Shown here: positions 11,872 to 31,067 of the stretch, piece after piece
Layout of the letters: each line of letters begins with the position of its first letter
How positions within the stretch are numbered: position 1 is the stretch's first letter
DNA from: Candidatus Latescibacterota bacterium
GTDB lineage: Bacteria > Latescibacterota > UBA2968
Assembly (NCBI GenBank): GCA_965198115.1
Contig: OZ240241.1
Span: 38,323 to 102,322, forward strand
Length of the DNA: 64,000 bases
Direction: 5' to 3'
Program-made: the position numbers and the translations under genes
The notes under the pieces: model-generated
The model's database searches: none
Told to the model about the DNA's origin: nothing
Seen by the model: only the letters and a program-made list of their open reading frames with translations

Positions 11872-11944
11872 AGCCCTATAAAGAAGTTTGCAAAGTGACA
11901 GGCGCACCTTAGATTATAGCTGCATTTGCAATATGAAAATATAT

Positions 11945-13364
11945 GGCTATATTCGGATCTCTCAACTAGATGAAGTGGGTGAAGGTGCCGTGGTTCCTGG
12001 CATGGGGGCGCGGTTAGAGTGTGCGGAACCTCTTCGGAATCTGCTCAGGGATGTTTATGTCTCCGACGGTAAGGAAGATCATATCGTTGAATGCGTCGAG
12101 TGTGCGGAATCCGCTGGCTCGGTTCTTGACGATTTGGACGATTCGGTTGAGGCCTTCGGCGATGGCGTTGGTAAGACGCGTGTTCACGAATGCGAGGACG
12201 CCGAAGAAGTGCTGTCGCAGGGTCCTGACGAACTTTCGCAGGGGTTCAAGTCGACTTCTGAGTGCGGACGTCGTCCAGCATTTCAGGAAGCGTTCGGCAG
12301 CCCAGGGCGCTTTGTATTCCCAGAACTGCTCGAACTCGTCCTTGAGTCTCCAGGCTCTATAGATTCGGTAGTTCGCCTTCTCCAGTGCTTCGAGTGTCCG
12401 AGTATCCCCTCTGGAGCGTGTCGCTGAGTGCCGGTAGAGGAGCCATCGGAGGCCCTTCATGGCTTTGCGCTCATCCGGGGCAGCTTTACGCCACTGGTCC
12501 TTACGGACCTCGTCAACGGCGGCATTGAGAGCCTTGACGATGTGAAAGCGATCGAGGACCAGCTTGGCATTCGGACAGTGTTCCTGGATGGCTCCGATGT
12601 AAGCTTCGCTCATGTCGCAGCAGGCCCACTCGATCTTGGATCTCCGGTAGGGACTGAGAGCCTCTGTGAAGAACCGATCGATCGTTTTACGCGCCCTGCC
12701 GCGGCCAACCCACACCACGCAGGAGCGGTCCAGATCGTAAACGAGCGTGGCGTACCTGTGACGCTTGGCGTAGGAGATCTCGTCGATCCCGATGGTTTTG
12801 AGCCCTCGGATACGATGACCTTCACGAAGCCGTGTGATGGATCGGTGAAGGAGATCCGACAGCGTCGAGGCAGAGATGCGCAGTAACTCGGACGCCGCCT
12901 TCTGCGTCATGGTCTGGCAGTAGCGCAGCATGGCATACTCGAAGCGATACGTCACCCGAGAGAACCGCTCCGCCCACGGAATCTCCTCGACCACACGACC
13001 GTGGGTAGGACACCGAATCTCCCGAGGATGGTAGAGAAGCCAGACCCTCCACCCGCACACCGGAATGTCACGCCACCGACGCGGATGGGGCATTGTGCGG
13101 ACGATTTTACCTCGACGGCCGCACTCCGGACAACAACAACCATTCTTATGTGGCTTTACGGCGATGACGAAACAGCTTCTCCCCTCAAACCACCAGCTGA
13201 CAACACGGAACCCCTTGAATCTCAGCAGTTTCGATAGTAATCTGCTCCCGGTCATAGGTCGCACCCCCTTCGCTTTGATTGTCCTACACACACAACCAAG
13301 CGTAGGGAACGATCTATGACCTTGTCATTCTATAGTTTCACCGTTGAGAAACCCGGATAGAGCC
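11945..13364 (-). mobile_element. ISL3-family IS, copy B (1420 bp, intact)
   Basis: Same inverted-repeat ends. A perfect 8-bp TSD AAATATAT sits at 11937..11944 and 13365..13372. Confidence 0.9.
12014..13291 (-). CDS. ISL3-family transposase (425 aa)
   Basis: Has the N-terminal zinc-ribbon CCCPECG...CPTHG. The DDE region ...GIDEISYAKRHRYATLVYDL...WACCDMSEAYIGAI...LDRFHIVKALNAAVDEVR...GLNRIVQIVKNRASGFR is the characteristic ISL3 (DDE_Tnp_ISL3) pattern. Confidence 0.92.
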   Translation of the reverse strand: MCRTIKAKGVRPMTGSRLLSKLLRFKGFRVVSWWFEGRSCFVIAVKPHKNGCCCPECGRRGKIVRTMPHPRRWRDIPVCGWRVWLLYHPREIRCPTHGRVVEEIPWAERFSRVTYRFEYAMLRYCQTMTQKAASELLRISASTLSDLLHRSITRLREGHRIRGLKTIGIDEISYAKRHRYATLVYDLDRSCVVWVGRGRARKTIDRFFTEALSPYRRSKIEWACCDMSEAYIGAIQEHCPNAKLVLDRFHIVKALNAAVDEVRKDQWRKAAPDERKAMKGLRWLLYRHSATRSRGDTRTLEALEKANYRIYRAWRLKDEFEQFWEYKAPWAAERFLKCWTTSALRSRLEPLRKFVRTLRQHFFGVLAFVNTRLTNAIAEGLNRIVQIVKNRASGFRTLDAFNDMIFLTVGDINIPEQIPKRFRTL

Positions 13365-13479
13365 AAATATATGTACCCTCCTTGTATCATTCGGTTGAAG
13401 GAGTAGATAGCAGAGCCGTACTTCCGTCCTGATCGAGCGGGGAGCTGTTTCACTCATTTCGTATCAAGGAGAGACCGGT

Positions 13480-13623
13480 ATGAAAGTGCTCAAGAAGCCA
13501 GTAGTGGCGCCCAGTGAGCAGGAGCTGCTCTACGAGGCGCTGGATTGCACCGAGGAGTGCTGTAGAGGCGGATGTCGGGTCAGAATCTTCGACACCGATG
13601 ATACAGACGACATCCTCTTCTAA
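13480..13623 (+). CDS. 47-aa Cys-rich putative precursor peptide (not in ORF track)
   Basis: My own translation gives MKVLKKPVVAPSEQELLYEALDCTEECCRGGCRVRIFDTDDTDDILF*. AAGGAGAG sits 8 nt upstream of the ATG. The gene is co-directional with, and 295 bp upstream of, the radical SAM/SPASM gene. It has four Cys within 10 residues and an acidic D/T tail. Confidence 0.6.
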   Translation: MKVLKKPVVAPSEQELLYEALDCTEECCRGGCRVRIFDTDDTDDILF

Positions 13624-13918: not shown

Positions 13919-15421
13919 ATGAAATGCAGTGTGTACAACCTCATTATAGACCTTGGAGAAGACGATCGATACTTGCTCTTTAATACGCTTTCGGGAGCGC
14001 TGATTGAAGCAGAAGCCGATGTAGCACATATGCTAAAGAGACATATTGAGCCGACCCCAACTCCGAGATTGCAGCAGACCTTTTCAGAAAACAAACCAAT
14101 TCCTGAAAATGCTATCGCAGGCATTGACGAAGAACGTAGAGGGGTTTTGTCAGACTGTGGATTCTTGGTAGAAGACCAGAAGGATGAAGTCGCTGAAGTG
14201 AGGGAACTGGATGTCACCCGATTTGCGGCTAATCGAGATGCTGATCGGGGAACACTCTCGCTCACGATCCTGCCCAGTATTCGATGTAATTTCGAGTGCT
14301 TCTATTGCTTTGAACCGTTGTCCCTAAGGCAGCAAGATAGTTCGATGACTGAGGAGGTTCAGGACAAGCTATGTACATACGTTGCGGAGAAGCTTCCGCT
14401 GCCAGAAATCAGAAAACTTAGCACAACGTGGTACGGTGGAGAACCTCTTCTCTACCCTCAGATCGTCGATTCTCTGCAGCGACGGATGAACGCGATTGCG
14501 GATGCGGAAGGCGTAAATGTGAAGAGCTCCATCGTCACGAACGGGTTTCTCTTGAGCCGAGATAACAGCGATATGCTTGTGGAGAACGGCATCACGACCG
14601 CCCAGGTAACACTCGACGGCCCTGCCAAAATTCACAATAAGAGGCGGCTGTACACACCAGATAGAAACGCGAACTACGACACAATCCTTACCAATCTCGC
14701 TAATGCAAACCCCGAGATGGATGTCATCATCCGCGTCAATGTCGGATCACACAATTCTGAGACAATAGAAGAATTGGTAAACGATCTCACCGAAGCTCGA
14801 ATCTGGCCTTACCGACGGGGAATCGGTGTCTACTTGGCTCCCGTAACTGGAGGTAAAGACTCACTACCTCGAGGGGAATATCTATCCCTTGAAGATGATT
14901 TCCGACTGGATATGGTCCGCAAATTCAACGAGTTGACCGATGGACCTAGAGCGAAGCTCGAGTTCAAACTTCCTTCGCTCACTAACATTTCTCAATGCGG
15001 TCACATAGTGGACGAAAAACACATCTGGGTGGTTGATCGTGTGGGGGATGTTTTCCGGTGCTGGGATGTTCCTGGCCAGGAGAGTCATTGTGTTGGCACG
15101 TTGGATGACCTGATTCACGATAGGATCAACGGGCTCAATCGTTGGGTCATGAATCCAGAAATACGTGAGGAGACGGGATGCTATAAGTGCAAGATGGCCC
15201 CAGTATGTACTGTCCCCTGTCCCTCGCATTACTTCTCTGAATGGAAATCTGGCGAGTATCTCGGAAAATACGACGACGGAAATCCTTTTTGCTGCGATTG
15301 GAAATTCGGGATCGAGAACAGGCTAGCTTCCGAGTACAAGTTCTACTCTGAGTCTCCTGAGTTGGTCTATGGGTTTCCAGGTGAAGGTAGCACGGAGAAC
15401 TTACTCCAGATTGCTGACTAA
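13919..15421 (+). CDS. radical SAM / SPASM-domain peptide-modifying enzyme
   Basis: 500 aa. The CX3CX2C cluster lies in LTILPSIRCNFECFYCFEP (Cys123/127/130). The C-terminal SPASM signature is GCYKCKMAPVCTVPCP (CX2CX5CX3C), with upstream Cys residues (CGH...FRCWD...HC). The N-terminal ~100 aa (YLLFNTLSGALIEAEADVAHML) resembles the peptide-binding leader region of SPASM maturases. AGGAGG lies 8 nt upstream of the ATG. Confidence 0.88.
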   Translation: MKCSVYNLIIDLGEDDRYLLFNTLSGALIEAEADVAHMLKRHIEPTPTPRLQQTFSENKPIPENAIAGIDEERRGVLSDCGFLVEDQKDEVAEVRELDVTRFAANRDADRGTLSLTILPSIRCNFECFYCFEPLSLRQQDSSMTEEVQDKLCTYVAEKLPLPEIRKLSTTWYGGEPLLYPQIVDSLQRRMNAIADAEGVNVKSSIVTNGFLLSRDNSDMLVENGITTAQVTLDGPAKIHNKRRLYTPDRNANYDTILTNLANANPEMDVIIRVNVGSHNSETIEELVNDLTEARIWPYRRGIGVYLAPVTGGKDSLPRGEYLSLEDDFRLDMVRKFNELTDGPRAKLEFKLPSLTNISQCGHIVDEKHIWVVDRVGDVFRCWDVPGQESHCVGTLDDLIHDRINGLNRWVMNPEIREETGCYKCKMAPVCTVPCPSHYFSEWKSGEYLGKYDDGNPFCCDWKFGIENRLASEYKFYSESPELVYGFPGEGSTENLLQIAD

Positions 15422-15443
15422 GGCTGAACTGATTTCGGACTTT

Positions 15444-17357
15444 ATGAAGCTTCTGACGCCGATCTCTTTTCTGGGAAGCTGCGAAATGAAATTGCTGGGT
15501 CTGAGGTTTGTGCTTGTAGTATGGATCACTACTGCTTGCACATACGACGTTACCGCAGCAGAACCGTACGACCTAAGCTACAGCGTATTCGCCCAGGACT
15601 CCGTGCTGTACAGATGGAACACGTCGGAAGGAGTGGTAGATGGTATGCTGGTCCGCCACAGATTCCCTCCCTTGGAACTCTGGGAGACATACCTATCGGA
15701 GGGGCTAGAAGCTCAGGAATACACGGAGAACGTGGTCTTCGCCTCGCGGGATTCCTCTGTTTATGGATGTGGCTTTGGAATAGACTATCCAGTCCTCATA
15801 CCCCGGAACGTACATCCGTACCTGACGGCACGCATATACGCTGATGGGCTTGGGCCCATTAAAGTCTGGATCCAGCTCCAGAACGATTGGATTTCCGTTC
15901 CCAAGGTAATCTCCGCCAAGGGCTACGACAAGATTGAGATAGGCCTAGGTAAACTGATAGGTTCTAGTAGGAAAATTTCCGGCGTGAAGATGATCGCTGA
16001 ACGAAGGAGCTTGAATGGCAGACTCATCGTTGGGGCTGTTCAGGTGACGACGAGGAGATTCCTAAAATGGCGATTTGGGGATAGGAGACCCGTTCCTATC
16101 AGGGCCCCATTGGGTGGCAGAGGCCCATTCGAAAGCTGGCCTCAGTGGGTGGGGTCTTTCGGTGATGGACCGGCGTTGAGATTTGGTGGTGGAACTGTCC
16201 CGGCGATGGCCAACCTGATGTCTGATCTGTTAAGAAAGTATTCTCGATACAGCATGAAGGACGTTAGTGTGAGCCAGGTGCTACGCCAACACGAGCAGCT
16301 TCTGCGTCCAGATATTGGGATCATAGAGTATTTAGATGGGCTGGAAGAGATCCTCGTACCACTCGGTGATACTCATTTTCGAGTTAATAGACCGACCTAC
16401 AGACACAGTACAACTCAACTCAATGATGTTGTGAAGTTCTATAGAATTGACGGACGTGTTATCGTTTCCGCTGTCTTCAGTCCTCGTCTTCAAAAGGTGA
16501 TCTCGGAAGGCGACGAAGTCACTGCCGTTGACGAAATGCCCATTGAGGATCACATAACGACAAGAACTATGTCCCTGGCAGGATCTACGGATTGGATCCG
16601 GGACCGGATCGTGATCGAGCGGCTGCTGACCAAGGAGGACTCTGTCGCAACTACAAGGGTCACCTTTCGGCGACCAGATGGACAAGAGTATTCGATTGAA
16701 CACCATACGAGCGATAGTCTGATGAGAGTCATCCCAAAGAATTTTCTAAAGGGAAGGTTCCACTACAAAGAGTTGGGAGAGTTCGCATACATACGTATAG
16801 GCACCTGGAGCGAAAAGACCTGGCCGTTCTTCTACTCCTACATTGACCGACTGAAAGAGAGCAAGGGGCTAATTCTTGATCTGCGGAGTAATGGTGGAGG
16901 AGACCTTTCCTTCTGTAGAATCGCTTCGTGCTTTGTAGACAAGCCATCAGTGATTTTCTCCGTTTGCAACATCGAAGGTGAGGGGGTCGAATCCATTCTT
17001 TTAAGACCAGATCCCTTCTTCTTCTATCGTGGCCCGGTTGCTGTCCTAGTGGATACAAGAACCGGCTGTGCTTCAGAGTTATTCGTGAGTGCGATCAAAA
17101 GGTATCACAAGGACACCATAGTAGTCGGTCAGAGCCCGACAAGTGGCGCAGTCGGTTTCATCAGAACGATATCGCTTCCGGGAGGGAACGAGATCACCTT
17201 TCCTGAACCCGTTTTGGACGCCTACAGTCGTGATCTCGAAGGAGTTGGTGTACAACCAGATATGAAAGCCAGCTTCGAATCATACCGGGACCTTGCACCT
17301 TATGACGATTCGCTTCTCGATCTTGCTATAGAGGCTCTTGCTCATCGTGCTATGTGA
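15444..17357 (+). CDS. secreted S41-family (tail-specific / C-terminal processing type) peptidase
   Basis: LILDLRSNGGGD and TGCASELFVSAIK are the S41 hallmark motifs (DLR.N.GG and the catalytic Ser region). It has a hydrophobic signal-like segment, KLLGLRFVLVVWITTACTYDVTAA. The start is uncertain (15444 or 15486). The track start at 15369 overlaps the upstream gene, so I rejected it. Confidence 0.8.
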   Translation: MKLLTPISFLGSCEMKLLGLRFVLVVWITTACTYDVTAAEPYDLSYSVFAQDSVLYRWNTSEGVVDGMLVRHRFPPLELWETYLSEGLEAQEYTENVVFASRDSSVYGCGFGIDYPVLIPRNVHPYLTARIYADGLGPIKVWIQLQNDWISVPKVISAKGYDKIEIGLGKLIGSSRKISGVKMIAERRSLNGRLIVGAVQVTTRRFLKWRFGDRRPVPIRAPLGGRGPFESWPQWVGSFGDGPALRFGGGTVPAMANLMSDLLRKYSRYSMKDVSVSQVLRQHEQLLRPDIGIIEYLDGLEEILVPLGDTHFRVNRPTYRHSTTQLNDVVKFYRIDGRVIVSAVFSPRLQKVISEGDEVTAVDEMPIEDHITTRTMSLAGSTDWIRDRIVIERLLTKEDSVATTRVTFRRPDGQEYSIEHHTSDSLMRVIPKNFLKGRFHYKELGEFAYIRIGTWSEKTWPFFYSYIDRLKESKGLILDLRSNGGGDLSFCRIASCFVDKPSVIFSVCNIEGEGVESILLRPDPFFFYRGPVAVLVDTRTGCASELFVSAIKRYHKDTIVVGQSPTSGAVGFIRTISLPGGNEITFPEPVLDAYSRDLEGVGVQPDMKASFESYRDLAPYDDSLLDLAIEALAHRAM

Positions 17358-17414: not shown

Positions 17415-18647
17415 GTGAGGTTTCTGTTTTGCCCTATGGCAACATATGGATTTGTCTATCCGGCCATCGGAATCGCGCTAGAACTGAGTCGAAGGGGGCA
17501 TGACGTTGCTTTCGTGACCGATAAGTCGTTCGACCACGTTCTAGCAGGTGAGGGGTTGCGAAGGATTCCAAACGGACGAAGTGATAGAAGAAGCTTCATT
17601 ATCGGGGACTGGGGCGAACCTGTCAGTGTCTGTTCTCAGGTTCGTCACATTCGATTCGCACTTGATGAATTTCGACCGGACGCGTGTGTGTCGTCGATTT
17701 TCTGTTTCGGAGCGCTGATAGCCAGGAAGTTATACGACCTACCCACGGCGGTGATAGGGCTTTGTACCTATATGTTTGCCCACCCGGATGACCTCAGGAC
17801 CCAAAGCGAGATTACTCCCTCTACGCGATCACTACAGCTCTCTGATGGATTCAGAGAAACCTACAATACTACCGGTCGCCTGTTTAAGATACCGGAAATG
17901 GGGTTGTGCGAATTTATTGAAGAGATGCCGGTACTTGGAGACCTGTTTCTGCTTCAGAATCTTGATGATCTCATCGAAGATTCAGATAGGTTGCCGGGAC
18001 GAGTGCATCTAGTAGGACCGTGTGGCTGGGATTCGCCAACCACAGATTCGGAGCTTGTCGACTGGATCAGGCAAGGACCGGCAGCGGGAGATCCGATTAT
18101 CTACGCGCAGCCGGGGGCACTCTTCGGGGCAAATTCGTTCTGGCCGGTCCTGACCAAGGCGCTGGAAGACGAAAGTGTGAGAGTAGTGGCCTCGGTTGGT
18201 AGGATGACGGGGAACGGTGATTACTCAAGCCTGCCTTCAAACTACTTCGTACGCGCACACGTGCCCCACCGACTCGTACTCCAGGTTGCAGATGGCGTTG
18301 TAACAGAGGGGCACACCAGTATAGTTCTCGCAGCACTCTCAGCAGGAGTGCCTTTGATGCTCATTCCTCACGGCGGCGAGGAGTTTGATTGCGCTGAAAT
18401 GTGTATCCGCGCGGGTGTCTGTGTCGGGATCAACCATGAGGAGTTGTCTCGTAACAATATGAAGCTGAAGCTGCGTGATCTCCTTCAGAGGACTGATATC
18501 CGAGAGCGTTCTACGAGGATTAAAACACTCATCCAAAATAACAACGGCCACAGTCGCGCAACAGACTTGATCGAAATTTTAGGCATGGAAAGGAGACAGA
18601 TCCTCCGCTCTTCGCTTTCGGCAAAGAATGTGCATTTGTCACCTTAG
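17415..18647 (+). CDS. GT1-family (MGT/UDP-glycosyltransferase-like) glycosyltransferase
   Basis: The N-terminus MRFLFCPMATYGFVYPAIGIALELSRRGHDVAFVTD and the C-terminal donor-binding block VTEGHTSIVLAALSAGVPLMLIPHGGEEFDCAEMCIRAGV match the GT-B macrolide/sterol glycosyltransferase pattern. Confidence 0.8.
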   Translation: MRFLFCPMATYGFVYPAIGIALELSRRGHDVAFVTDKSFDHVLAGEGLRRIPNGRSDRRSFIIGDWGEPVSVCSQVRHIRFALDEFRPDACVSSIFCFGALIARKLYDLPTAVIGLCTYMFAHPDDLRTQSEITPSTRSLQLSDGFRETYNTTGRLFKIPEMGLCEFIEEMPVLGDLFLLQNLDDLIEDSDRLPGRVHLVGPCGWDSPTTDSELVDWIRQGPAAGDPIIYAQPGALFGANSFWPVLTKALEDESVRVVASVGRMTGNGDYSSLPSNYFVRAHVPHRLVLQVADGVVTEGHTSIVLAALSAGVPLMLIPHGGEEFDCAEMCIRAGVCVGINHEELSRNNMKLKLRDLLQRTDIRERSTRIKTLIQNNNGHSRATDLIEILGMERRQILRSSLSAKNVHLSP

Positions 18648-18771: not shown

Positions 18772-20191
18772 GGCTATATCCGGATCTCTCAACGAGATGA
18801 AGTGGGTGAAGGTGCCGTGGTTCCTGGCATGGGGGCGCGGTTAGAGTGTGCGGAACCTCTTCGGAATCTGCTCAGGGATGTTTATGTCTCCGACGGTAAG
18901 GAAGATCATATCGTTGAATGCGTCGAGTGTGCGGAATCCGCTGGCTCGGTTCTTGACGATTTGGACGATTCGGTTGAGGCCTTCGGCGATGGCGTTGGTA
19001 AGACGCGTGTTCACGAATGCGAGGACGCCGAAGAAGTGCTGTCGCAGGGTCCTGACGAACTTTCGCAGGGGTTCAAGTCGACTTCTGAGTGCGGACGTCG
19101 TCCAGCATTTCAGGAAGCGTTCGGCAGCCCAGGGCGCTTTGTATTCCCAGAACTGCTCGAACTCGTCCTTGAGTCTCCAGGCTCTATAGATTCGGTAGTT
19201 CGCCTTCTCCAGTGCTTCGAGTGTCCGAGTATCCCCTCTGGAGCGTGTCGCTGAGTGCCGGTAGAGGAGCCATCGGAGGCCCTTCATGGCTTTGCGCTCA
19301 TCCGGGGCAGCTTTACGCCACTGGTCCTTACGGACCTCGTCAACGGCGGCATTGAGAGCCTTGACGATGTGAAAGCGATCGAGGACCAGCTTGGCATTCG
19401 GACAGTGTTCCTGGATGGCTCCGATGTAAGCTTCGCTCATGTCGCAGCAGGCCCACTCGATCTTGGATCTCCGGTAGGGACTGAGAGCCTCTGTGAAGAA
19501 CTGATCGATCGTTTTACGCGCCCTGCCGCGGCCAACCCACACCACGCAGGAGCGGTCCAGATCGTAAACGAGCGTGGCGTACCTGTGACGCTTGGCGTAG
19601 GAGATCTCGTCGATCCCGATGGTTTTGAGCCCTCGGATACGATGACCTTCACGAAGCCGCGTGATGGATCGGTGAAGGAGATCCGACAGCGTCGAGGCAG
19701 AGATGCGCAGTAACTCGGACGCCGCCTTCTGCGTCATGGTCTGGCAGTAGCGCAGCATGGCATACTCGAAGCGATACGTCACCCGAGAGAACCGCTCCGC
19801 CCACGGAATCTCCTCGACCACACGACCGTGGGTAGGACACCGAATCTCCCGAGGATGGTAGAGAAGCCAGACCCTCCACCCGCACACCGGAATGTCACGC
19901 CACCGACGCGGATGGGGCATTGTGCGGACGATTTTACCTCGACGGCCGCACTCCGGACAACAACAACCATTCTTATGGGGCTTTACGGCGATGACGAAGC
20001 AGCTTCTCCCCTCAAACCACCAGCTGACAACACGGAACCCCTTGAATCTCAGCAGTTTCGATAGTAATCTGCTCCCGGTCATAGGTCGCACCCCCTTCGC
20101 TTTGATTGTCCTACACACACAACCAAGCGTAGGGAACGATCTATGACCTTGTCATTCTATAGTTTCACCGTTGAGAAACCCGGATAGAGCC
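18772..20191 (-). mobile_element. ISL3-family IS, copy C (1420 bp, intact)
   Basis: Same ends. A perfect 8-bp TSD AAAATTGA sits at 18764..18771 and 20192..20199. Confidence 0.9.
18841..20118 (-). CDS. ISL3-family transposase (425 aa)
   Basis: Differs from 12014..13291 by a single residue in the ORF track (TIDQFF versus TIDRFF). Confidence 0.92.
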   Translation of the reverse strand: MCRTIKAKGVRPMTGSRLLSKLLRFKGFRVVSWWFEGRSCFVIAVKPHKNGCCCPECGRRGKIVRTMPHPRRWRDIPVCGWRVWLLYHPREIRCPTHGRVVEEIPWAERFSRVTYRFEYAMLRYCQTMTQKAASELLRISASTLSDLLHRSITRLREGHRIRGLKTIGIDEISYAKRHRYATLVYDLDRSCVVWVGRGRARKTIDQFFTEALSPYRRSKIEWACCDMSEAYIGAIQEHCPNAKLVLDRFHIVKALNAAVDEVRKDQWRKAAPDERKAMKGLRWLLYRHSATRSRGDTRTLEALEKANYRIYRAWRLKDEFEQFWEYKAPWAAERFLKCWTTSALRSRLEPLRKFVRTLRQHFFGVLAFVNTRLTNAIAEGLNRIVQIVKNRASGFRTLDAFNDMIFLTVGDINIPEQIPKRFRTL

Positions 20192-20278
20192 AAAATTGAG
20201 ACTTCAGCTCCCAGGAGTTGCTGCTATAACAAAGGAATCGGTTGGCCTTGCTGCTAACATAAGGAACATGGGGGAAAT

Positions 20279-21997
20279 TTGGAGGAAGATCAGACAGGTC
20301 TGATGAAGATGAGGCGAATGGCCGCGGGGGTTTACCCACACGCAATTGGCTTAGGAATCGTCTCAATAGTCGGTGTCTCGGTTGGGATCGCCAAGCCCGT
20401 GGTTTTTTCTAGAGTAATAGACCAGGGGCTTGTCGAAAACGACTGGGATACGACGTTTCGTCTTACGAAGTACCTTGGTCTAGTAGGTCTCTTTGGACTA
20501 CTGACATCCTCCATCCACCGGATCCTCGCAAGTTACATTTCGAATAGAATCGTTGAGAATATGAGGAACTGGCTAGTAGCCAGAGTCTTCGTTCTACAGT
20601 ATGAACACTTCGTCCAAACTCCCAGAGGGGAAATCCTGGCCACAATCGAGGACGATTGTGCCAACATAAGGGAATTCTCAGTTTCTACTCTGCAGTCAGC
20701 GATGAGAAGCTTCCTTAGCTTTGTCGCGGCCATATGCTATGTCGGGTGGGTGCAATGGAAGATGCTATTGGCTGGAGCCCTTGCCGTACCATTTATGGCC
20801 ATCTGCATGAGATTGTTCCGAAGGGTTGTATATGAGTGCGGATCACAAGTGGCTGAAGCAAGAGCTGTGGCTAAGAACTCTCTGGTGAATACTGTAGAGA
20901 GCATGAGTTCATTAAGGCAATTGGGCTTATCCGATTGGTCGCGTGATGTTATTCGAGGTGATCTTGGGAAGCTTCGGAGGAGTAGTATCCGTGAGCAAGT
21001 ATGGGAGAGCCTGACCGAACTGTCCTCGGGTTCTGTCTCATTGTTTAGCTATTTGGTGATTCTGGGATACGGTGGGTTGCTGGTTTCAACTAATGAGATA
21101 GGAATAGGGCATCTACTTGCCTTCCTAACGATGAGGCAAAGTTTTTTTGCGCCATTGGATTTCGTTGATCGTGTCTACAAAGGTTACTTCAAGGCCAAAC
21201 GTTCTCGCGAACGGATTGATTCACTGTCCAGCCAGCCACTCGAGACCGGTTTCCACGGTGGGGATAGCATCCCCGACGATTTCCATCCGCATTCCCTATC
21301 CATCGAAGACGTATCATTCTCGTTCGGAGACAAGGCTCTGCTATGCTCGGCCAATGCGACATTCACCACAGGGTGGAACGAACTAAGAGGACCCAATGGA
21401 TCAGGCAAGACAACACTCCTAGGAATCATTCTCAAAGTCCGTAACCCTCAACAGGGCCGGATCTTTGTGGACGGTTACAATGTTGCGAACTTCAACAACC
21501 GCAGCTGGCGAAGCCACATTTCTGTTGTTGCACAGGAGCCCTTCATATTTCAAGGGACACTGAGGGAGAACCTTAGACTTTTCGATGAGAACATTGATGA
21601 CTCTATGATTGATAGCATGCTTGAGCAGGTAGGTCTTCGAAAGTGGTGCGAAGAGAGGGGGCTCGACACAGAACTATCCCAAGGCGGAAGCGAAATTTCA
21701 GGAGGACTTAAGCAACGTTTGGCGATTGCCAGAGCTCTTCTGAGAAGCTCCGCCGTCTACATTTTCGATGAGCCAGTTTCCCAGGTCGACTTGCTTACGA
21801 AAGGAGACTTGCTTCGCGTGATGAAGAGATACACTCGCGGCGCAATTGTGATAGTTATATCCCATAGCGATCTTAGAGATGTAGCGGACCGGATCTTTCA
21901 CGTGAAGGATGGCCGAGTCAAAGGCGAAGAGGTTAAGCCCGAAGCTCTGTGTGAGCTAGATCCGTCGGTGCAAGGCGTTGTCGGACATCCATCCTAA
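20279..21997 (+). CDS. ABC exporter, fused transmembrane + ATP-binding domains (no peptidase domain)
   Basis: About six predicted TM segments precede Walker A GPNGSGKTTLLGI, the signature ISGGLKQRLAIARALL and Walker B VYIFDEPVSQVD. There is no N-terminal C39 domain. The start may be ATG 20303 rather than TTG 20279. Confidence 0.85.
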   Translation: MEEDQTGLMKMRRMAAGVYPHAIGLGIVSIVGVSVGIAKPVVFSRVIDQGLVENDWDTTFRLTKYLGLVGLFGLLTSSIHRILASYISNRIVENMRNWLVARVFVLQYEHFVQTPRGEILATIEDDCANIREFSVSTLQSAMRSFLSFVAAICYVGWVQWKMLLAGALAVPFMAICMRLFRRVVYECGSQVAEARAVAKNSLVNTVESMSSLRQLGLSDWSRDVIRGDLGKLRRSSIREQVWESLTELSSGSVSLFSYLVILGYGGLLVSTNEIGIGHLLAFLTMRQSFFAPLDFVDRVYKGYFKAKRSRERIDSLSSQPLETGFHGGDSIPDDFHPHSLSIEDVSFSFGDKALLCSANATFTTGWNELRGPNGSGKTTLLGIILKVRNPQQGRIFVDGYNVANFNNRSWRSHISVVAQEPFIFQGTLRENLRLFDENIDDSMIDSMLEQVGLRKWCEERGLDTELSQGGSEISGGLKQRLAIARALLRSSAVYIFDEPVSQVDLLTKGDLLRVMKRYTRGAIVIVISHSDLRDVADRIFHVKDGRVKGEEVKPEALCELDPSVQGVVGHPS

Positions 21998-22016
21998 AGG
22001 AACCGTGGAGGATAGG

Positions 22017-22853
22017 ATGGAAAACACATTAGATGTTGTTAGACGGCCAGACGTTTCGCCGGAAACATACTTGAAACTATATGGGAAACCGAACAAACCA
22101 TTTGTCATTGCGGATGGCGCAGAGGAATGGAAGGCCCGATCAACCTGGAACATGAGATTCTTTGAAGAGCGTTATGGAGATGTCAGACTGCAGGTGACAC
22201 GGATAGCGAGAGGGAGAACGGAATCCGCTGGTGTAAAGACCATAGCTGAATACGCAGACTACCTCCGCACTCAGAACCATGAAAAGGAGCCACTCTATCT
22301 CCGAGATTGGGTCCTGGAAGAGAAGTACCCTGAGCTTCTTTCTCACATCTCCGTGCCTTCCTATCTATGCAACTGGCTTGACCGTATCCCGATTAGCGGC
22401 AGTCGTAGACACTTCTGGCGAGGTTGGAAAGGTTGGATTTTCATCGGCCCAAAAGGAACTGGAACTGAGCTCCATACGGACGTTGTTAAATCCTCGGCCT
22501 GGCTGGCCCTCATAAGTGGACAAAAGGAGTGGGTATTAACCCCACCTAACGAACACGATCCAGCCACGTTTGCTAAAGTCGACCTGCTAAATCCTGACTA
22601 TGAAGCCTATCCCTTCCTTCGGAATTCGAAGAGGATCTGCTACACCCAGCGTCCAGGAGAACTATTAGTCGTCCCGAGTGGATGGTGGCATCAGGTCTGT
22701 AACTCTGATGCCACCATCTCTGTTTCTGGGAACTTCATAAATGAATCCAACATACACTTCTTCTGTAAGGACTTGCTTGAGAACGGATCACTTGCTGAAC
22801 TCAGAGACTACTCATGCTACATTCCAGAGATAGTCCCCTTTTTAGCATCCTAG
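22017..22853 (+). CDS. JmjC / cupin-8 Fe(II)/2-oxoglutarate oxygenase (paralog 2)
   Basis: WKGWIFIGPKGTGTELHTDVVKSSAWLALISGQKEWVLTPP (HxD) and GWWHQVCN. I chose ATG 22017 because GGAGG lies 8 nt upstream. The track start TTG 21978 overlaps the ABC gene. The stop TAG lies inside the IS256-a TSD. Confidence 0.8.
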   Translation: MENTLDVVRRPDVSPETYLKLYGKPNKPFVIADGAEEWKARSTWNMRFFEERYGDVRLQVTRIARGRTESAGVKTIAEYADYLRTQNHEKEPLYLRDWVLEEKYPELLSHISVPSYLCNWLDRIPISGSRRHFWRGWKGWIFIGPKGTGTELHTDVVKSSAWLALISGQKEWVLTPPNEHDPATFAKVDLLNPDYEAYPFLRNSKRICYTQRPGELLVVPSGWWHQVCNSDATISVSGNFINESNIHFFCKDLLENGSLAELRDYSCYIPEIVPFLAS

Positions 22854-22854
22854 G

Positions 22855-24227
22855 GAGCTATAATCAAAAGGTGTGGAAAAGAGAAAGGGCGACCCTACCC
22901 TTCCCGTGAGATAGTTGATTCACACAAAACCGGGTGAGAGGCCCGGTTGGGAAGGAGGATCGCCGTGAAGGAACATACGCATAGAGCCCCATTGAAGTCC
23001 ATGCCGACGTGGGAGACGGTTGACGATTGGATCCGTGAAGAGATCCAGGGCCGGTTCCAGTCCATTCTGGAGGAGGAGGCGACCGCGTTCTTGGGCCGGT
23101 CGTGGTATGAGCGCCGAGCCGAGGTTGATAGCTCCAGGGGCTACAGGAACGGCTACGGCAAGCCCCGGCGTCTCTCGACGAGCTGCGGAACGATCAAGGT
23201 CCGGCGTCCCCGGGTTCGTGGTCTGGAAGAGCGGTTTGAAAGCCGCATCCTCCCCCTGTTCGCCCGGAGAACCAGGGCCATTGGAGATCTGCTTCCCGAC
23301 CTTTATCTCCACGGTCTCTCCCAGGGCGACTTCGAGTTGTCTTTGCGTGCGCTGCTCGGTGATGGCGCGCCGCTTTCGCCGACCTCGATCGCTCGTCTTC
23401 GAGGGAAGTGGGAGGTCGACTTCCAGGACTGGAAAGAAAGGCGTCTGGATAATCGCGAACTGGTCTACGCCTGGGCTGATGGCATCTACGTCAAAGCCGG
23501 GCTCGAGCGCGAGAAGGCGTGTCTGCTGGTCGTGATCGGCGCGATGAGCGACGGCAGCAAGGAGATCCTGGCGATAGAACCCGGTTATCGAGAGTCTACA
23601 GAATCCTGGCTCACGGTGCTCCGGGATCTCCGGGATCGCGGGCTCGAACATCCTGTCCTGATCGCCGCGGACGGGAATATGGGCATCTGGGCGGCCGTTG
23701 ATCAGGTCTGGCCAGAGAGCCGGCAACAACGGTGCTGGAACCACAAGATCCTCAACGTGCTCGACAAGGTCGCCAAGCGTGCACAGGCTGAAGCCCGCGC
23801 ACTGCTCGTCCAGATCCCCTATGCCGGCACGAAAAAGGAGGCCGAGAAGCTCCGGAAACGCTTTGCCGCACGGTATCGCTCACAGTTCCCTGCCGCCGTG
23901 GAGACGCTCGAAAGAGACTGGGATCGGATGGTCACGTTCTACGACTTCCCGAAGGAACACTGGAAACACCTGAGAACCACGAACGTCGTCGAGAGCCCCT
24001 TTGCTTCCGTTCGGCTTCGCACAAACGCCACCAGGCGATTCAAGAAAGTCAGGAACGCCACGACTCTCATCTGGCGTACGCTCAAGGTCGCAGAGAGCCG
24101 ATTCAGGAAACTCACCGCGCCACACTTGCTACAACAAGTCTACGATCAGAAACACTCAACCGGACCGCAGGTCGAAGCCGGGAAGATGGCCGCCTGATTT
24201 CTTTTACACACCTATTGACCTGAGCTC
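22855..24227 (+). mobile_element. IS256-family IS, type a (IS256-a), copy 1
   Basis: The inverted repeats are GAGCTATAATCAAAAGGTGTGGAAAAGA and (rc) GAGCTCAGGTCAATAGGTGTGTAAAAGA. A perfect 8-bp TSD ATCCTAGG sits at 22847..22854 and 24228..24235. Confidence 0.9.
22947..24197 (+). CDS. IS256-family (mutator-type) transposase, 416 aa
   Basis: A single uninterrupted ORF with typical IS256 blocks: ...YERRAEVDSSRGYRNGYGKPRRLSTSCGTIKVRRPRVRG..., ...DGIYVKAGLEREKACLLVVIGAMSDGSKEILA..., ...QRCWNHKILNVLDKV..., ...HLRTTNVVESPFASVRLRT... Confidence 0.92.
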   Translation: MGRRIAVKEHTHRAPLKSMPTWETVDDWIREEIQGRFQSILEEEATAFLGRSWYERRAEVDSSRGYRNGYGKPRRLSTSCGTIKVRRPRVRGLEERFESRILPLFARRTRAIGDLLPDLYLHGLSQGDFELSLRALLGDGAPLSPTSIARLRGKWEVDFQDWKERRLDNRELVYAWADGIYVKAGLEREKACLLVVIGAMSDGSKEILAIEPGYRESTESWLTVLRDLRDRGLEHPVLIAADGNMGIWAAVDQVWPESRQQRCWNHKILNVLDKVAKRAQAEARALLVQIPYAGTKKEAEKLRKRFAARYRSQFPAAVETLERDWDRMVTFYDFPKEHWKHLRTTNVVESPFASVRLRTNATRRFKKVRNATTLIWRTLKVAESRFRKLTAPHLLQQVYDQKHSTGPQVEAGKMAA

Positions 24228-24383
24228 ATCCTAGGATCGATCTGAGCCTACTGGATTCCGAAAGATCTCTACGTGAAGCGTCGATTGCATTTGTGTCCCA
24301 CACGAGTCCAGAATCGGTTTCGTTCAGAGTCGAGGGCCAACGAGTTGGCGAGCATGTTGACCTTCTAACTCGAGAGTATATTA

Positions 24384-26291
24384 GTGAGTGTCAAAGTAGC
24401 TGTCATAGACAGTGGGCTGTGCGAGTCCCATCCCAAGTTAAAAGGGGTACGCGTCACGGACCGCGTGTCGGTAGGAAGCGACGGGATTTCTCGAGGATGT
24501 ACCAGCGATGTTTGGGGACACGGTACGGCCTGCACGCAGATAATTCACAGTGTTCTGGATAGAGAGCTTCGTAGGAGTTGTGAGTTCAAGATCGTAAAGG
24601 TTTTTGATCGCCAACTGGTGGTTAGTCAGGACATCCTTCTAAAAGCCCTCCTGTGGTGTATGGATTCGGGCGTAGACGTAATTAGTGTGAGTATCGGCGT
24701 TCGGGCGTCCTCGCCTCCCCAAGAGCTTGTGGACCTCTGTCTTGAGGCACATTCGAAAGGCATCATACTAGTAGCGCCAGACCACAACGAAGGGGATGGC
24801 CCATGCTACCCAGCGTCACTTTCGCATGTCTTTGGCGTTACAGGCGGAGTTTTGAGATCACGGCGTGAGTTTGGTGTTAACGAGGAGAGCGATATTGAGT
24901 TCGTTGGTCGGGGAACCAATCAACGTGTGGCGTGGATCAATGACTCCTACATCTTCGACAGCGGGACAAGCTTTGCCTCTGCGCAACTAGCAGGAATAGT
25001 GTGCAATGTAAGAGCGCAGTTTCCAGAATCTGATCCGTCAGAATTGAAAGCACACCTCATGTCAATTGGACTTAGAGGTGTGCCTATTACCAGCAGGTTT
25101 GTCTCTGCCGGAACAGGCACCGGCCGCTGGGCGCCCCAGGGGACAGACACGATTGAAGAGGTGGTCGAGCGGAATTTTTCACCCAAAAGATTCAGCTGGA
25201 TGCGACGCGCTGCTCTCTATCCAGTATGTAACAAAGAATTTCACGCGATCGAGCACTTCAGTAGGCAATGCCAGTTTGAGCTTGTGGAAATTCTGGACTT
25301 TCCAAAGGGAGTGATTTCCCACCGAGATATTGAGATCGATGGAAGGAAATACACGAAAAAGTGGCGAGTAAGTGATATTGAAAGGTCGTTTGATACCCTC
25401 ATTGTTGGATATCCATACGAGACGCCCTTTGGCGCTGATCACAAGGCCTATAAAGACATCTTAGACCAGGCCTGGCATACGGAGTGCAACTTCTTTTGTC
25501 TTAGCGGCGATGTAGAGAAACAATTGCAAAAGGAAAGGGACAGCCTCGGTAAGGTGTCGTCACAGATTTACTGTCCAAGGGTTGACACAGCTGACCTTCA
25601 ACGACTTGCGTGTCTCCAAAGTGAAGGTGAGACAACAAGACCGGTTCTCGCAGTAGTGGGGACAAATGAAAAGCAGGGCAAGTTCTCGCTTCAGTTGCGT
25701 ATAAAGAAGGTCATGGAAGATGCAGGATATGAAGTAGGTTGGCTATCCACCGAGCCGCAAGGTGAGCTTTTCGGCGCCTCGTTTGCATTTCCGTATGGTT
25801 ACAATGGAACGGTCGCTCTCAATCCGCACGACTGGCCCGTAGCCGTCTCGTGCGCGATTCGTGGGATAGAAATGGCCGGTAGCCCAGACATCATTATCAC
25901 GGGCCATCAATCAGGTCTACTGCCCTACACCAGAGGAAATTTGGCGGACATCTATCTGCAACACTTGACATTCCTGAGTGGCTGTCGCGCTGATGCCGCT
26001 GCGTGCGTGATAAGTCCAGAAGATGACATCAGGACAGTCGAGGATGTTATTGGTGTCCTGCAACATCTCCTGCGAGTCCCGGTGCTCTTTTTCGCACTGC
26101 ATCGAAACGTGAGATCACTTGGGACTCTGGACAGTGGGAAGAATTATGTAAAAGTAAGGAGATTGAAGGAGGCAGAGTGGCAGGAACGCGCGAGGGAACT
26201 TAGGTCTCGGTTCGGCATTCCTGTAATTGATTCTCACAGTGAACATTATGACAGTGACATACTTCGAGCAGTGGAGGACTGTTTTGCCTGA
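24384..26291 (+). CDS. fusion protein: N-terminal S8 subtilase domain + C-terminal DUF1611-like (DgcN-like) domain
   Basis: The S8 catalytic triad contexts are VAVIDSGL (Asp), HGTACTQII (His) and SGTSFASAQLAG (Ser), within residues 1-230. Residues ~400-600 contain LAVVGTNEKQGKFSLQLRI and ITGHQSGLLPY. These resemble the DUF1611 P-loop-like GT....GK motif and its GQGS..HP block. The GTG start has a weak RBS. Confidence 0.7.
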   Translation: MSVKVAVIDSGLCESHPKLKGVRVTDRVSVGSDGISRGCTSDVWGHGTACTQIIHSVLDRELRRSCEFKIVKVFDRQLVVSQDILLKALLWCMDSGVDVISVSIGVRASSPPQELVDLCLEAHSKGIILVAPDHNEGDGPCYPASLSHVFGVTGGVLRSRREFGVNEESDIEFVGRGTNQRVAWINDSYIFDSGTSFASAQLAGIVCNVRAQFPESDPSELKAHLMSIGLRGVPITSRFVSAGTGTGRWAPQGTDTIEEVVERNFSPKRFSWMRRAALYPVCNKEFHAIEHFSRQCQFELVEILDFPKGVISHRDIEIDGRKYTKKWRVSDIERSFDTLIVGYPYETPFGADHKAYKDILDQAWHTECNFFCLSGDVEKQLQKERDSLGKVSSQIYCPRVDTADLQRLACLQSEGETTRPVLAVVGTNEKQGKFSLQLRIKKVMEDAGYEVGWLSTEPQGELFGASFAFPYGYNGTVALNPHDWPVAVSCAIRGIEMAGSPDIIITGHQSGLLPYTRGNLADIYLQHLTFLSGCRADAAACVISPEDDIRTVEDVIGVLQHLLRVPVLFFALHRNVRSLGTLDSGKNYVKVRRLKEAEWQERARELRSRFGIPVIDSHSEHYDSDILRAVEDCFA

Positions 26292-26544
26292 TGGTACGGA
26301 CAACATCAGGGGGAAGTTGGTCGAATTAAGCAAGGAGTTTATGCCTGACTCTTCGATTGTCGACGATACGGAGAGACTCATCGTAATTGGATCAGAATCT
26401 GTTAGGGCGATCGAGTTTCTCATGGCAATCGAGGATGAGTTCGAGATTGAGATAGAAGATGACGCGCTTACTCCCGATTTTTTCTCCGACTACACATTTA
26501 TCTGCAAGGCAGTGGAAGAAGCCCTCGAAGTCTCACCTGAGTGA
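26284..26544 (+). CDS. acyl-carrier-protein-like small protein
   Basis: The 86-aa version starts at TTG 26284, with GGAGG 7 nt upstream, and overlaps the upstream stop by 8 nt. It has a four-helix ACP-like pattern: ...IRGKLVELSKEFMPDSSIVDDTERLIVIGSESVRAIEFLMAIEDEFEIEIEDDALTPDFF.... A Ser sits in GSES at the position of the canonical DSL phosphopantetheine site. The track gives 26227..26544. Confidence 0.6.
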   Translation: MPDGTDNIRGKLVELSKEFMPDSSIVDDTERLIVIGSESVRAIEFLMAIEDEFEIEIEDDALTPDFFSDYTFICKAVEEALEVSPE

Positions 26545-26559
26545 TAGGAAAGGCTGGTC

Positions 26560-27438
26560 ATGGTTCGGACATTTATTGTCGAAGAGCACAATGAGGCGTT
26601 CTTGGTTTGGAGTCGAGCAATTTCTGCTGGTCTCATACCAGCCACCGGGAACGAGCTAGTTCACGTTGACCAACATTCAGATCTTGATGCGCCAAGGCTA
26701 AAGAGATCTGTGAAAGACACTATGGATGACGATGAGCTACTGGAGTTTGTCTTTCGTGATCTAAGGATCGGAACCTTCATCATTCCAGCTGTCTACCTGG
26801 GGTTGTTTAACTCGATTCAATGGGTCAAGAAACGCCACAATTTGGAGACCCAGAAAACGTTATTTGTCCGATCTTACAACACTTCTGGAAAGAAACTCAT
26901 CATACAAGATGAACTTCCACTAGGGATCGATCTCACAGATGATGACGTGCAGTCTTTTCAGCTTATTCGTCAGAATGTCGAGAACCTTGAGTGCACAAAC
27001 GATGCCGTTCTAGACATAGACTTGGATTACTTCTCAGCCGAGGAAAACCCGGCGGAACGCACGGACTGCGTTGCCGAGATAACTCGAGAAGAGTACTGGT
27101 CATTCCACAACGACAGATATCACCAGATTAACTATCTCGGACCAATCGTGGAAGCGGTAGAGAAGAACGGGAGATACTTTTACACCTTCAACATGTTCGA
27201 TGAGATCTACCCCTCGCGTCTGGCTGTTGATGATGGGATCATTCAGCAGAGAGTTGAAGAACTCATCGAAGTACTCTCAAGAATCGAGCTTGTTCCTAAA
27301 TTGATAACCATATGTCGTTCTGTGAAGAGCGGCCACACACCCTCCAGCCAGGGCCAACTGATTGAAACTATGGTGCTCAAAGGGCTTAGAGCATTGTACG
27401 AGATCGACCCACAGATGGTCGACGACTCACTCGCATAG
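26560..27438 (+). CDS. UPF0489 (C5orf22-like) family protein
   Basis: TFIVEEHNEAFLVWSRAISAGLIP...ELVHVDQHSDL, IGTFIIPAVYLGLFNSIQWV, VLDIDLDYFSAEENP and PKLITICRSVKSGHTPSSQGQLIETMVLKGLRALY run in parallel with the conserved blocks of eukaryotic UPF0489/C5orf22 as I remember them (VVEDH.EVL...HFDSHPDL; IENWIMPAVYAGH; VLDIDLDFFS; TIARSS...). Confidence 0.7.
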   Translation: MVRTFIVEEHNEAFLVWSRAISAGLIPATGNELVHVDQHSDLDAPRLKRSVKDTMDDDELLEFVFRDLRIGTFIIPAVYLGLFNSIQWVKKRHNLETQKTLFVRSYNTSGKKLIIQDELPLGIDLTDDDVQSFQLIRQNVENLECTNDAVLDIDLDYFSAEENPAERTDCVAEITREEYWSFHNDRYHQINYLGPIVEAVEKNGRYFYTFNMFDEIYPSRLAVDDGIIQQRVEELIEVLSRIELVPKLITICRSVKSGHTPSSQGQLIETMVLKGLRALYEIDPQMVDDSLA

Positions 27439-27599
27439 CGTACTGAAGCTGGATCCCCGCATAGTCCATTTAGATGGTGCGCTTTGAGCGCATGTGCGAA
27501 TCCGGTGACGATATTGACCTGCCCCCACTCCTCCGAAGATAGGGTTTAGCAAAAGGCACTACCGCTTGGATTAAGAGTTCAGCAGTCCTAACAGCTAAC

Positions 27600-29736: not shown

Positions 29737-29969
29737 AGGGGGTAGCAGAATATGTGAGGCAACGACCCCTCAGGGGTAGCAGAAACCCTGAGTCAATGCG
29801 GGTGGGAGTTCTAATTGTCGCTAATCAATCCAGAACCAGGAGCGGGAAGACCAGCGTCTCGACCAGTCTCAACATCTTCAGATAATCGCCCCCTTTAGGT
29901 GGCGCACACGGTCTTAAACCGCTTTGAGCGGTTCACAAGTTTTTCAAGCCTCCAGCTTTGCCGGAGGTC

Positions 29970-31067
29970 ATGACTACAGTGAAAGTGGATGATGGGGGGG
30001 ACATTTTGCAGGTGATGGTCGACATCCATTTAGATCCACCGATACGCACCTGGACCTACCACGCGTTTCGAATGTCAGTTTTAGGGAAGGGTCGTTTCTT
30101 TCGACCGTGGATCCTAAGCAATTTCATCCAGATGTGCTGTCGAGATTTGAGTGACTTCTCTTGGGAATCCTTAGAGGTGTACGAAGCCTATCTTGATGTA
30201 CCGTATGGGTATAACTTCTTTTGTCCTGAAAAGTTCTACAATGCAGCGGGCTTGGTACAGCATTCAGTTGATAGAAACCTGTTTAGCGAATGGACCGATG
30301 GAAGGCTGGCAGAATTCGTTTGTAGATCCATTGACCGCGGCTTCTGTTTTTACACATACCTCAACTATCAGTCCGTGCTCAGAGAGGGGAACACACCGAT
30401 TCATCCATCGAAAAGTAACCATGGGACAATGATATGTGGCTATGATAAAAGTAAACGTGCATTCGCGATTTTGGGCTATGAATCCGGGAGCTATGGTCTT
30501 TCTTGGGTGGACATTAACCTCGTAGAAAGCGCGTACCAAGAGACCTACCTTGAATCGATGAGCAGAGCCCATCAGACCATCTGGCTATTGGGCAGAGACG
30601 ATACTCCTTATTGGTTTAGCTTGGAAAAGGTGGCAGGACAGCTTCGTGACTATCTCGACTCTCAGAACAGGCTTGGATTCGGAAGCCTTCTTGTTCAGCA
30701 GCCATCGTCACTATGTTATGGGTTGGAGACCTATGAGACGGGTCTCATTGGGCACTTAGGTGTAGTTCAGGAGAGGCCCAAACTCCTCTACTATCATCTT
30801 TTCCACGCTCTTAAGGAGCACAAGGCGCTGATGCTCGAAAGAATTCAACACCTCAATCATATGCGGATTGTTGATCATAGGATAGTGGAGGAATACTCCT
30901 CGATCTTCAGATGGGCTGAAAATGTCAGAATGGTAATGCTAAAGTTCAGGATGAGACCAAGGAAAAAGACGCCAGATCGAATGATCAATAGATTGCGGGA
31001 AATGGCTGAGAAGGAGGCGGAGGTATTGGAAAAGACTTACCAAGCGATAAGTCAAGTGGGGGAATAA
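29970..31067 (+). CDS. hypothetical protein (365 aa), weak papain/transglutaminase-like His motif
   Basis: I chose ATG 29970 because GGAGG lies 5 nt upstream. SNHGTMICGYDKSKRAFAILGY resembles the catalytic-His strand of papain-fold enzymes (H..V.GYD). I recognise no other family motif. Its low GC matches the cluster genes. Confidence 0.5.
   Translation: MTTVKVDDGGDILQVMVDIHLDPPIRTWTYHAFRMSVLGKGRFFRPWILSNFIQMCCRDLSDFSWESLEVYEAYLDVPYGYNFFCPEKFYNAAGLVQHSVDRNLFSEWTDGRLAEFVCRSIDRGFCFYTYLNYQSVLREGNTPIHPSKSNHGTMICGYDKSKRAFAILGYESGSYGLSWVDINLVESAYQETYLESMSRAHQTIWLLGRDDTPYWFSLEKVAGQLRDYLDSQNRLGFGSLLVQQPSSLCYGLETYETGLIGHLGVVQERPKLLYYHLFHALKEHKALMLERIQHLNHMRIVDHRIVEEYSSIFRWAENVRMVMLKFRMRPRKKTPDRMINRLREMAEKEAEVLEKTYQAISQVGE

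Follow-up and report, generated by a model that had tools for sequence, protein, structure and literature searches.

Peptide arginases use binuclear Mn2+ chemistry on an α-β-α sandwich fold, as do the conventional arginases of family PF00491. The conventional enzymes, including KgrD of the enteropeptins, an arginase for peptides made by the ribosome and modified after translation (RiPPs), have a different oligomeric state and different substrate-binding residues (PMC10028609). Bacterial proteins of family PF12640 (UPF0489) were recognised as peptide arginases from 2020 onwards, starting with OspR, the landornamide arginase of Kamptonema sp. PCC 6506; its structure (8BRP) and its Mn dependence are reported in PMC10028609. 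In 2025 FlmR from Flagellimonas meridianipacifica and OhkR from Ohtaekwangia koreensis were added. For both, conversion of two arginines of the core into ornithine was demonstrated in vivo as well as in vitro (PMC12703449, Pfeiffer et al. 2025). Here we analyse a PF12640 gene located at 26560..27438 in 64,000 nt of DNA from Candidatus Latescibacterota bacterium (assembly GCA_965198115.1, contig OZ240241.1, positions 38,323 to 102,322); this whole stretch is called the window. Very probably the gene codes for a peptide arginase which acts on a 47 amino acid (aa) precursor within a RiPP pathway of the flm/ohk type, an activity deduced from sequence.

The chemistry of the family has been worked out. 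OspR is Mn2+-dependent and converts peptidyl arginine to ornithine and urea (PMC10028609). In OspR-type enzymes a metal-bridged hydroxide attacks the guanidinium carbon of peptidyl arginine, urea leaves and ornithine stays; the characterised peptide arginase is a homodimer with a central cleft proposed to bind the precursor (PMC10028609, PMC12703449). PF12640 is common to the window arginase and to human C5orf22. The latter is placed in pfam12640 together with OspR, and its role as a peptide arginase is a published proposal (PMC10028609) which was repeated in a 2026 preprint (bioRxiv 10.64898/2026.05.28.728550). FlmR and OhkR are tied to an orphan type of precursor which ends with DD(I/V)LF (PMC12703449), and all 57 published precursors of this type are from Bacteroidetes.

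An earlier note on this DNA had presented UPF0489/C5orf22 as an orphan family awaiting its first functional hypothesis. This was overtaken by the literature: OspR in 2020, the structure 8BRP, and FlmR and OhkR in 2025 already assign a peptide arginase function. As the functional hypothesis has been published and tested, the locus is not a lead on an orphan family. Bacterial PF12640 is orphan no longer, and the locus is a divergent copy of the cluster type characterised in 2025.

Family, catalytic residues and predicted fold

26560..27438, + strand: putative peptide arginase (PF12640/UPF0489), 292 aa; assigned by predicted Mn ligands, Pfam, NCBIfam and 8BRP

The open reading frame (ORF) extends from ATG 26560 to TAG 27436-27438. 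The sequence blocks quoted in the earlier note are all present: EEHNEAF (residues 8-14), DQHSD (37-41, within HVDQHSDL), LDIDLDYFS (151-159) and ITICRS (249-254), further IPAVYLGLF and LRALY. The family named there was right as well. In a hidden Markov model (HMM) search of Pfam-A the protein matched PF12640 with an E-value of 3.4e-18 and 67 bits, the gathering score being 27; the match covers residues 5-158 of the protein, aligned to positions 2-167 of the 167-position profile. This is far above chance, and family membership is established. PF12640 was the sole Pfam-A family at E <= 0.01, neither PF00491 nor PF00850 (Hist_deacetyl) being matched. On contigs with related loci, precomputed Pfam labels carry PF12640.13 under the name "FlmR_OhkR_N".

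Peptide arginases are characterized by the motifs EEH(N/H)EAF, DXHXD and LDIDLDYFSC (PMC12703449). The window protein has all three, the last residue of the third being A, not C; it thus shares Pfam family and motifs with FlmR and OhkR. Against the NCBIfam model NF052474, "peptide arginase, FlmR/OhkR family", it scores 311.9 bits (E 4.4e-93) over 286 of 287 profile positions. The sequence itself is divergent. FlmR and OhkR, the activity of which has been shown by experiment, are about 39% identical to it (an approximate value, as their sequences were taken from supplement text obtained by optical character recognition). Identity to OspR is 33-34%, and to any sequence retrieved at most 44%, the nearest relatives being at about 39-44%. 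In a maximum-likelihood tree the window protein lies outside the OspR/cyanobacterial clade (support 87/98) and stands on a long branch among sequences of the FlmR/OhkR type. We use this tree for the exclusion from the OspR/cyanobacterial clade and for nothing beyond it.

The metal ligands of OspR are His12, Asp39, His41, Asp43, Asp165 and Asp167; Glu11 and Ser264 are implicated in catalysis (PMC10028609). 8BRP is the sole solved relative of the window protein, with an E-value of 4e-50 over residues 4-288. According to this alignment the ligand equivalents are H10, D37, H39, D41, D154 and D156, and E11 and S264 of OspR correspond to E9 and S254. Among 19 aligned homologues there is no variation at E9, H10, D37, H39, D41 and D156, and at least 90% have D154 and S254. 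Across eight cluster-linked arginases all of these residues, E9, H10, D37, H39, D41, D154, D156 and S254, are invariant. The catalytic residues are evidently in place.

An AlphaFold2 model computed from the 19-sequence alignment has a mean predicted local distance difference test score (pLDDT) of 93.1 and a predicted template modelling score (pTM) of 0.88. When this model was compared with the PDB by Foldseek, the three chains of 8BRP alone were significant, with an E-value of 3e-31 and template modelling (TM) scores of 0.87/0.84 over about 299 columns. The window arginase is predicted to have the arginase-like α-β-α fold with the extra domain of the OspR type. The suggestion in the earlier note that the His/Asp-rich motifs belong to a metal-dependent hydrolase of the arginase type has held up: the six-ligand site is conserved, NF052474 and 8BRP are matched, and the predicted structure superposes on 8BRP (TM 0.87) with the ligands of the binuclear site conserved. 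With OspR the window protein has in common the predicted fold, the ligands, the Glu/Ser helpers and the proposed chemistry. OspR belongs to another cluster, where its precursor is of the NHLP/proteusin type.

The precursor peptide and its gene cluster

A six-frame motif search of the window for a small ORF with DDILF directly before a stop codon yielded a candidate substrate:

13480..13623, + strand: precursor of the DD(I/V)LF type (family as defined in PMC12703449), 47 aa, MKVLKKPVVAPSEQELLYEALDCTEECCRGGCRVRIFDTDDTDDILF

It is located 13 kb upstream of the arginase, its ATG 13480 is preceded by GGAGAGA, and its C-terminus reads ...TDDTDDILF followed by the stop codon. It is the sole such small ORF in the window. 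Two other motif matches exist in the 8.4-Mb genome (...DDDVLF and ...DDVVF), the second of which does not conform to DD(I/V)LF. The peptide carries a leader-like motif K-x-L-K-K-P and a core CCRGGCRVR. Its only arginines, R29, R33 and R35, are all within the Cys-rich core, and the leader is free of Arg; a precursor with core arginines is therefore at hand. When the peptide was aligned with FlmA1-3 and another five precursors, C32-R33 coincided with the Cys-Arg of FlmA1-3, the Arg of which is converted. The flm/ohk precursors share the type, the C-terminal DD(I/V)LF and a core Arg beside a Cys; the window precursor differs in being shorter (47 aa) and in having four Cys and three clustered Arg.

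The hydrophobic C-terminus DD(I/V)LF is always accompanied by an S41 'tail-specific' peptidase. The motif could be a C-terminal recognition tag for the S41 peptidase encoded at 15369-17357 of the window. In a related locus (L008, see below) the S41 peptidase at 10924-12999 shows a weak PDZ_4 match.

The genes which accompany precursor and arginase are as follows (ABC, ATP-binding cassette; SAM, S-adenosylmethionine; ACP, acyl carrier protein):

8024..10405, + strand: MacB/FtsX-type permease, 793 aa; counterpart of flm orf2 and ohkJ
13919..15421, + strand: radical SAM/SPASM maturase, 500 aa; best NCBIfam match FlmE/OhkG
15369..17357, + strand: S41 peptidase, 662 aa; counterpart of flmF/ohkF
17415..18647, + strand: MGT-type glycosyltransferase, 410 aa; not in flm/ohk, arginase-adjacent in L012
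20279..21997, + strand: ABC exporter (permease + ATPase), 572 aa; counterpart of flmL/ohkM
21978..22853, + strand: Cupin_8/JmjC hydroxylase-like protein, 291 aa; counterpart of flmI/ohkL
24384..26291, + strand: fusion of an S8 subtilase with a DUF1611-like domain, 635 aa; corresponds to flmH (638 aa)
26284..26544, + strand: ACP-like protein, 86 aa from the likely start TTG 26284; counterpart of flmJ (87 aa)
29958..31067, + strand: protein with no Pfam or NCBIfam match, 369 aa, guanine-plus-cytosine (GC) fraction 0.468; downstream of the arginase

This content matches the flm cluster (Table S2) and the ohk cluster (Table S3) of PMC12703449 almost one for one, and all cluster ORFs are full length with respect to their flm/ohk counterparts with no frame broken. 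A radical SAM/SPASM enzyme, an S41 and an S8 peptidase, a cupin, an ACP-like protein, an ABC exporter and an FtsX permease are common to all; the cluster content is conserved. The peptide-modification context claimed in the earlier note is thus real, and it is a RiPP cluster with precursor and flm/ohk-like genes. In the window the arginase comes last, after the ACP, rather than beside the radical SAM gene, and a glycosyltransferase is added, as it also is in L012. The holo-ACP synthase of flm was not recognised among the window ORFs examined, no search with an ACPS model having been made. The host belongs to the Latescibacterota and not to the Bacteroidota, and the cluster is pierced by insertion sequence (IS) elements. 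The radical SAM/SPASM protein scores 220 bits against NF052473 (FlmE/OhkG), which is below the cut-off of 500.

The frame of the ACP-like protein is open from 26227, and an SES motif occupies the position of the phosphopantetheine site. With the likely start at TTG 26284 the protein has 86 aa, like those of flmJ and ohkK, and its gene overlaps the S8-DUF1611 stop codon TGA 26289-26291, which suggests translational coupling of the two genes. The ACP-like ORF ends at 26544, and a 15-nt spacer containing GGAAAGG separates it from the ATG of the arginase; the 16 nt given in the earlier note were essentially right. A scan of 24150-27750 for promoters and terminators gave nothing above shuffled expectation.

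We infer the enzymatic activity, the arginines which are converted and the order of steps from these assignments. The arginase would be a dimeric Mn2+-dependent ureohydrolase acting post-translationally on the precursor encoded at 13480..13623. Hydrolysis of the guanidino groups of core arginines would generate ornithine and urea, with a loss of 42.02 Da per site; R33 is a likely target together with R29 and/or R35. Judged by their families, the radical SAM/SPASM enzyme would cross-link the Cys-rich core, and the cupin and the glycosyltransferase would hydroxylate and glycosylate the peptide. The S8 and S41 peptidases may be responsible for proteolysis and the ABC exporter for export. A step involving ACP and the DUF1611-like domain would contribute to maturation.

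Two observations concern the borders of the cluster. Homologues of the 369-aa ORF, 57-58% identical, are encoded at L028:10001-11068 and L029:10001-11053, and in L029 roughly 5.5 kb separate the 57% homologue from a pair of S8-DUF1611 and ACP genes. The window ORF could be part of the cluster, perhaps of the S8-DUF1611/ACP module. At the other end, beyond IS debris, a carbamoyltransferase (1028-2674, + strand) and a second Cupin_8/JmjC gene (2738-3595, - strand) have a GC fraction of 0.49 like the cluster. Perhaps they belong to the same island and code for additional tailoring enzymes; in the ohk cluster, too, additional JmjC genes are found upstream (PMC12703449).

Insertion elements and genomic setting

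Today the array is interrupted by three IS copies:

11945..13365: ISL3 copy upstream of the precursor gene; 8-bp target duplication AAATATAT
18772..20192: ISL3 copy between the glycosyltransferase and ABC genes; 8-bp target duplication AAAATTGA
22854..24228: IS256 copy right after the cupin stop codon; 8-bp target duplication CATCCTAG

All three are intergenic and share 99.3-99.6% identity with further copies in the window; the IS256 duplication CATCCTAG takes in the stop codon of the cupin gene. A second IS256 copy (34897-36272) has no target duplication. Because the copies in the array are nearly identical to others and their target duplications are intact, the insertions are recent. As they are also intergenic, the array was, until recently, a contiguous nine-gene unit on the + strand. 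The earlier note had placed the arginase in one operon with the SPASM maturase. This applies to the state before the insertions and no longer to the present one, in which the two genes are on the same strand at a distance of 11 kb with ISL3 and IS256 between them.

The genome is a single contig of 8.43 Mb with 59.1% GC. The best named relatives of its RecA come from metagenome-assembled genomes of Latescibacteria and Gemmatimonadota, at 77-80% identity. In the cluster genes GC is 46-52%, and in the IS copies between them 58-61%. Among the 40 genomes closest to it, which share its genus, family or order, not one has a PF12640 gene, and a full-length PF12640 match was found in 3 of 168 genomes sampled from the whole phylum. 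Of 400 evenly sampled Bacteroidota genomes three had PF12640, besides the genome at the centre of the analysis; all three matches were weak or partial, and their gene neighbourhoods were not informative. The cluster resides on a low-GC, IS-rich island which appears to have been horizontally acquired by this Latescibacterota genome. A 455-kb metagenome contig (L028, ENA contig ctg835211_21x_l) carries ISL3 and IS256 copies which are 99.7% identical to those of the window; presumably, to judge from these elements, it originates from a close relative of the window organism.

Related loci, rival explanations and significance

The neighbourhoods of related arginases were surveyed, as the earlier note had suggested:

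L001, Puia sp. (in PMC12703449 Table S5): arginase, S41, DDILF precursor, radical SAM, S8-DUF1611, ACP, ABC
L002, Chitinophagaceae: ABC, arginase, S41, four tandem precursors (NDILV/NDVLV/NDILL ends), radical SAM, S8-DUF1611, cupin, ACP
L012, metagenome: S41, DDILF precursor, radical SAM, S8, cupin, 2-oxoglutarate oxygenase, glycosyltransferase, arginase, ABC; no ACP
L008, GCA_028278205.1: arginase, S41 with PDZ, FtsX, three precursors ending with DEILF
L003, Latescibacterota metagenome-assembled genome: radical SAM truncated beside a transposase, S8-DUF1611, ACP, arginase
G129, same class as the window genome: S41, precursor, radical SAM, S8-DUF1611, ACP, membrane protein, arginase, ABC

The core genes together with DD..IL[FV] precursors are found again in L001, L002, L012 and G129, and L008 comprises precursor, S41 and permease only. 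L003 is a degraded copy of the cluster in which a precursor was not found. The S8 protease of L012 has 250 aa and is without DUF1611. Beyond this cluster type, an arginase about 41-42% identical to that of the window follows directly after a LanB-type lanthipeptide dehydratase (L010:1523-6242); two precursors with Arg-rich, Cys-containing cores are located upstream of both genes, on a Rep3 plasmid-like contig. In Moorena (L004) the arginases form a tandem pair, and in the arginase neighbourhood of Galbibacter (L005) none of the cluster genes was recognisable. The association of these arginases with peptide-modification genes is recurrent (L001, L002, L012, L008, L003 and G129), and the published definition of the family had already been built on it.

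Several observations weigh against a peptide arginase acting on the 47-aa precursor. The 311.9 bits of the window protein are below the curated NF052474 cut-off of 350. Other members of the family score 368 (Galbibacter), 351.5 (Puia), 332.7 (L002), 295 (L003), 289.6 (OspR), and 285.9 and 175.4 (Moorena); since OspR, a proven arginase, and the cluster-linked L002 protein both remain below 350, the cut-off does not take in the whole functional family. The arginase tree is largely unresolved, with 13 of 23 inner branches open, and the window protein is long-branched. The precursor is 13 kb off and the array is now split by IS elements, so present-day co-expression is uncertain. Lastly, G129 has the arginase closest to that of the window (L023:88-984, 44% identity), intact and with all ligands kept, and its only visible precursor of the DD..ILF type (L022:13103-13261, MKELVKPNLTEEEYEEKENVTGYCDHDGCSKICFLGNCSPVSGDDDSGDILF) is Arg-free with a single core lysine. 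The presence of an arginase is therefore not always predictive of an Arg-bearing neighbour.

The proximity of arginase and ACP genes invites two further explanations. The δ-amines of arginase-made ornithines might accept an acyl group from the adjacent ACP via the DUF1611-like domain, with a ribosomal lipopeptide analogous to the selidamides as the product. We consider this extension unlikely. For it speak the order S8-DUF1611, ACP, arginase, which is found in the window (with the 15-nt spacer) and in L003 and, with one gene between, in G129, further the precedent of ornithine acylation in selidamides (cited in PMC12703449; PMC8784127), and the inclusion of an ACP and a holo-ACP synthase in the flm cluster (PMC12703449). 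However, L012, L008 and L010 have an arginase without ACP or DUF1611, L029 has S8-DUF1611 and ACP without an arginase, and G129 combines the complete S8-DUF1611/ACP/arginase module with a visible precursor devoid of Arg. Further, the DUF1611-like domain is fused to a protease, and capping of a new N-terminus fits at least equally well. The L029 cluster consists of the 369-aa ORF homologue, HlyD, ABC, a TPR/C39_2 protein, S8-DUF1611 and ACP; a 97-aa peptide in it shows a similar start, K-L-L-K-P. Because each occurs without the other (L012, L008 and L010; L029), the arginase and the ACP/S8-DUF1611 pair are independent tailoring units, and the 15-nt spacing is operon packing rather than shared chemistry. 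It is doubtful, then, that ornithine side chains are attachment points for ACP-bound acyl groups and that DD(I/V)LF products are ribosomal lipopeptides of a new type. If they were, the gene order in Latescibacterota would reflect a coupling to acylation, which we likewise hold for improbable. The earlier note had read the closeness to the ACP-like gene (15 nt by our count) and the His/Asp-rich motifs of arginase/deacetylase type as signs of a metal-dependent deacylase or amidohydrolase for an ACP-bound intermediate or an acylated peptide. This has next to no likelihood, as the full six-ligand binuclear arginase site is kept, no Hist_deacetyl or Arginase Pfam match exists at E <= 0.01, peptidyl arginine is the substrate of the characterised relatives OspR, FlmR and OhkR (PMC10028609, PMC12703449), and ACP and arginase are unlinked across loci. 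In view of the complete ligand set and the lack of co-variation with ACP we reject a histone deacetylase (HDAC)-like or ACP-directed deacylase.

Might the cluster be a silent, decaying remnant, inactivated by IS insertions, with an arginase nonfunctional in the organism? Three IS copies in the array, further IS debris downstream of the arginase, the truncated radical SAM gene beside a transposase in the related L003 and the lack of the island in all 40 closest relatives are in line with this. Against it stand ORF lengths equal to those of the flm/ohk counterparts with unbroken frames, insertions which are recent and intergenic (99.3-99.6% identity, intact target duplications), and the retention of every catalytic residue. 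We regard a remnant as quite improbable. Hydrolysis of free arginine, or of a different small guanidino compound, would be compatible with the ureohydrolase fold and the ligand set, which are common to conventional arginases (PMC10028609). Yet PF00491 is not matched, the sole significant structural and sequence match, 8BRP, is without nearly all of the residues which bind the α-carboxylate and α-amino groups of free arginine (PMC10028609), and the gene is part of a RiPP cluster whose precursor bears Arg. Hence such a function is scarcely credible, and we reject a free-arginine arginase because PF00491 is not matched and the one relative with a solved structure acts on peptides.

We therefore maintain that the gene very likely specifies a peptide arginase of an flm/ohk-type pathway. 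The novelty is modest and consists of the Latescibacterota host, the IS-pierced low-GC island, the Cys-rich core and the divergent arginase. For the biology of the family the locus shows that arginase and ACP/S8-DUF1611 module are independent tailoring units and that the DD(I/V)LF RiPPs extend beyond Bacteroidota into Latescibacterota. The divergent arginase with its compact Cys/Arg-rich core CCRGGCRVR could serve groups which use peptide arginases for peptide engineering.

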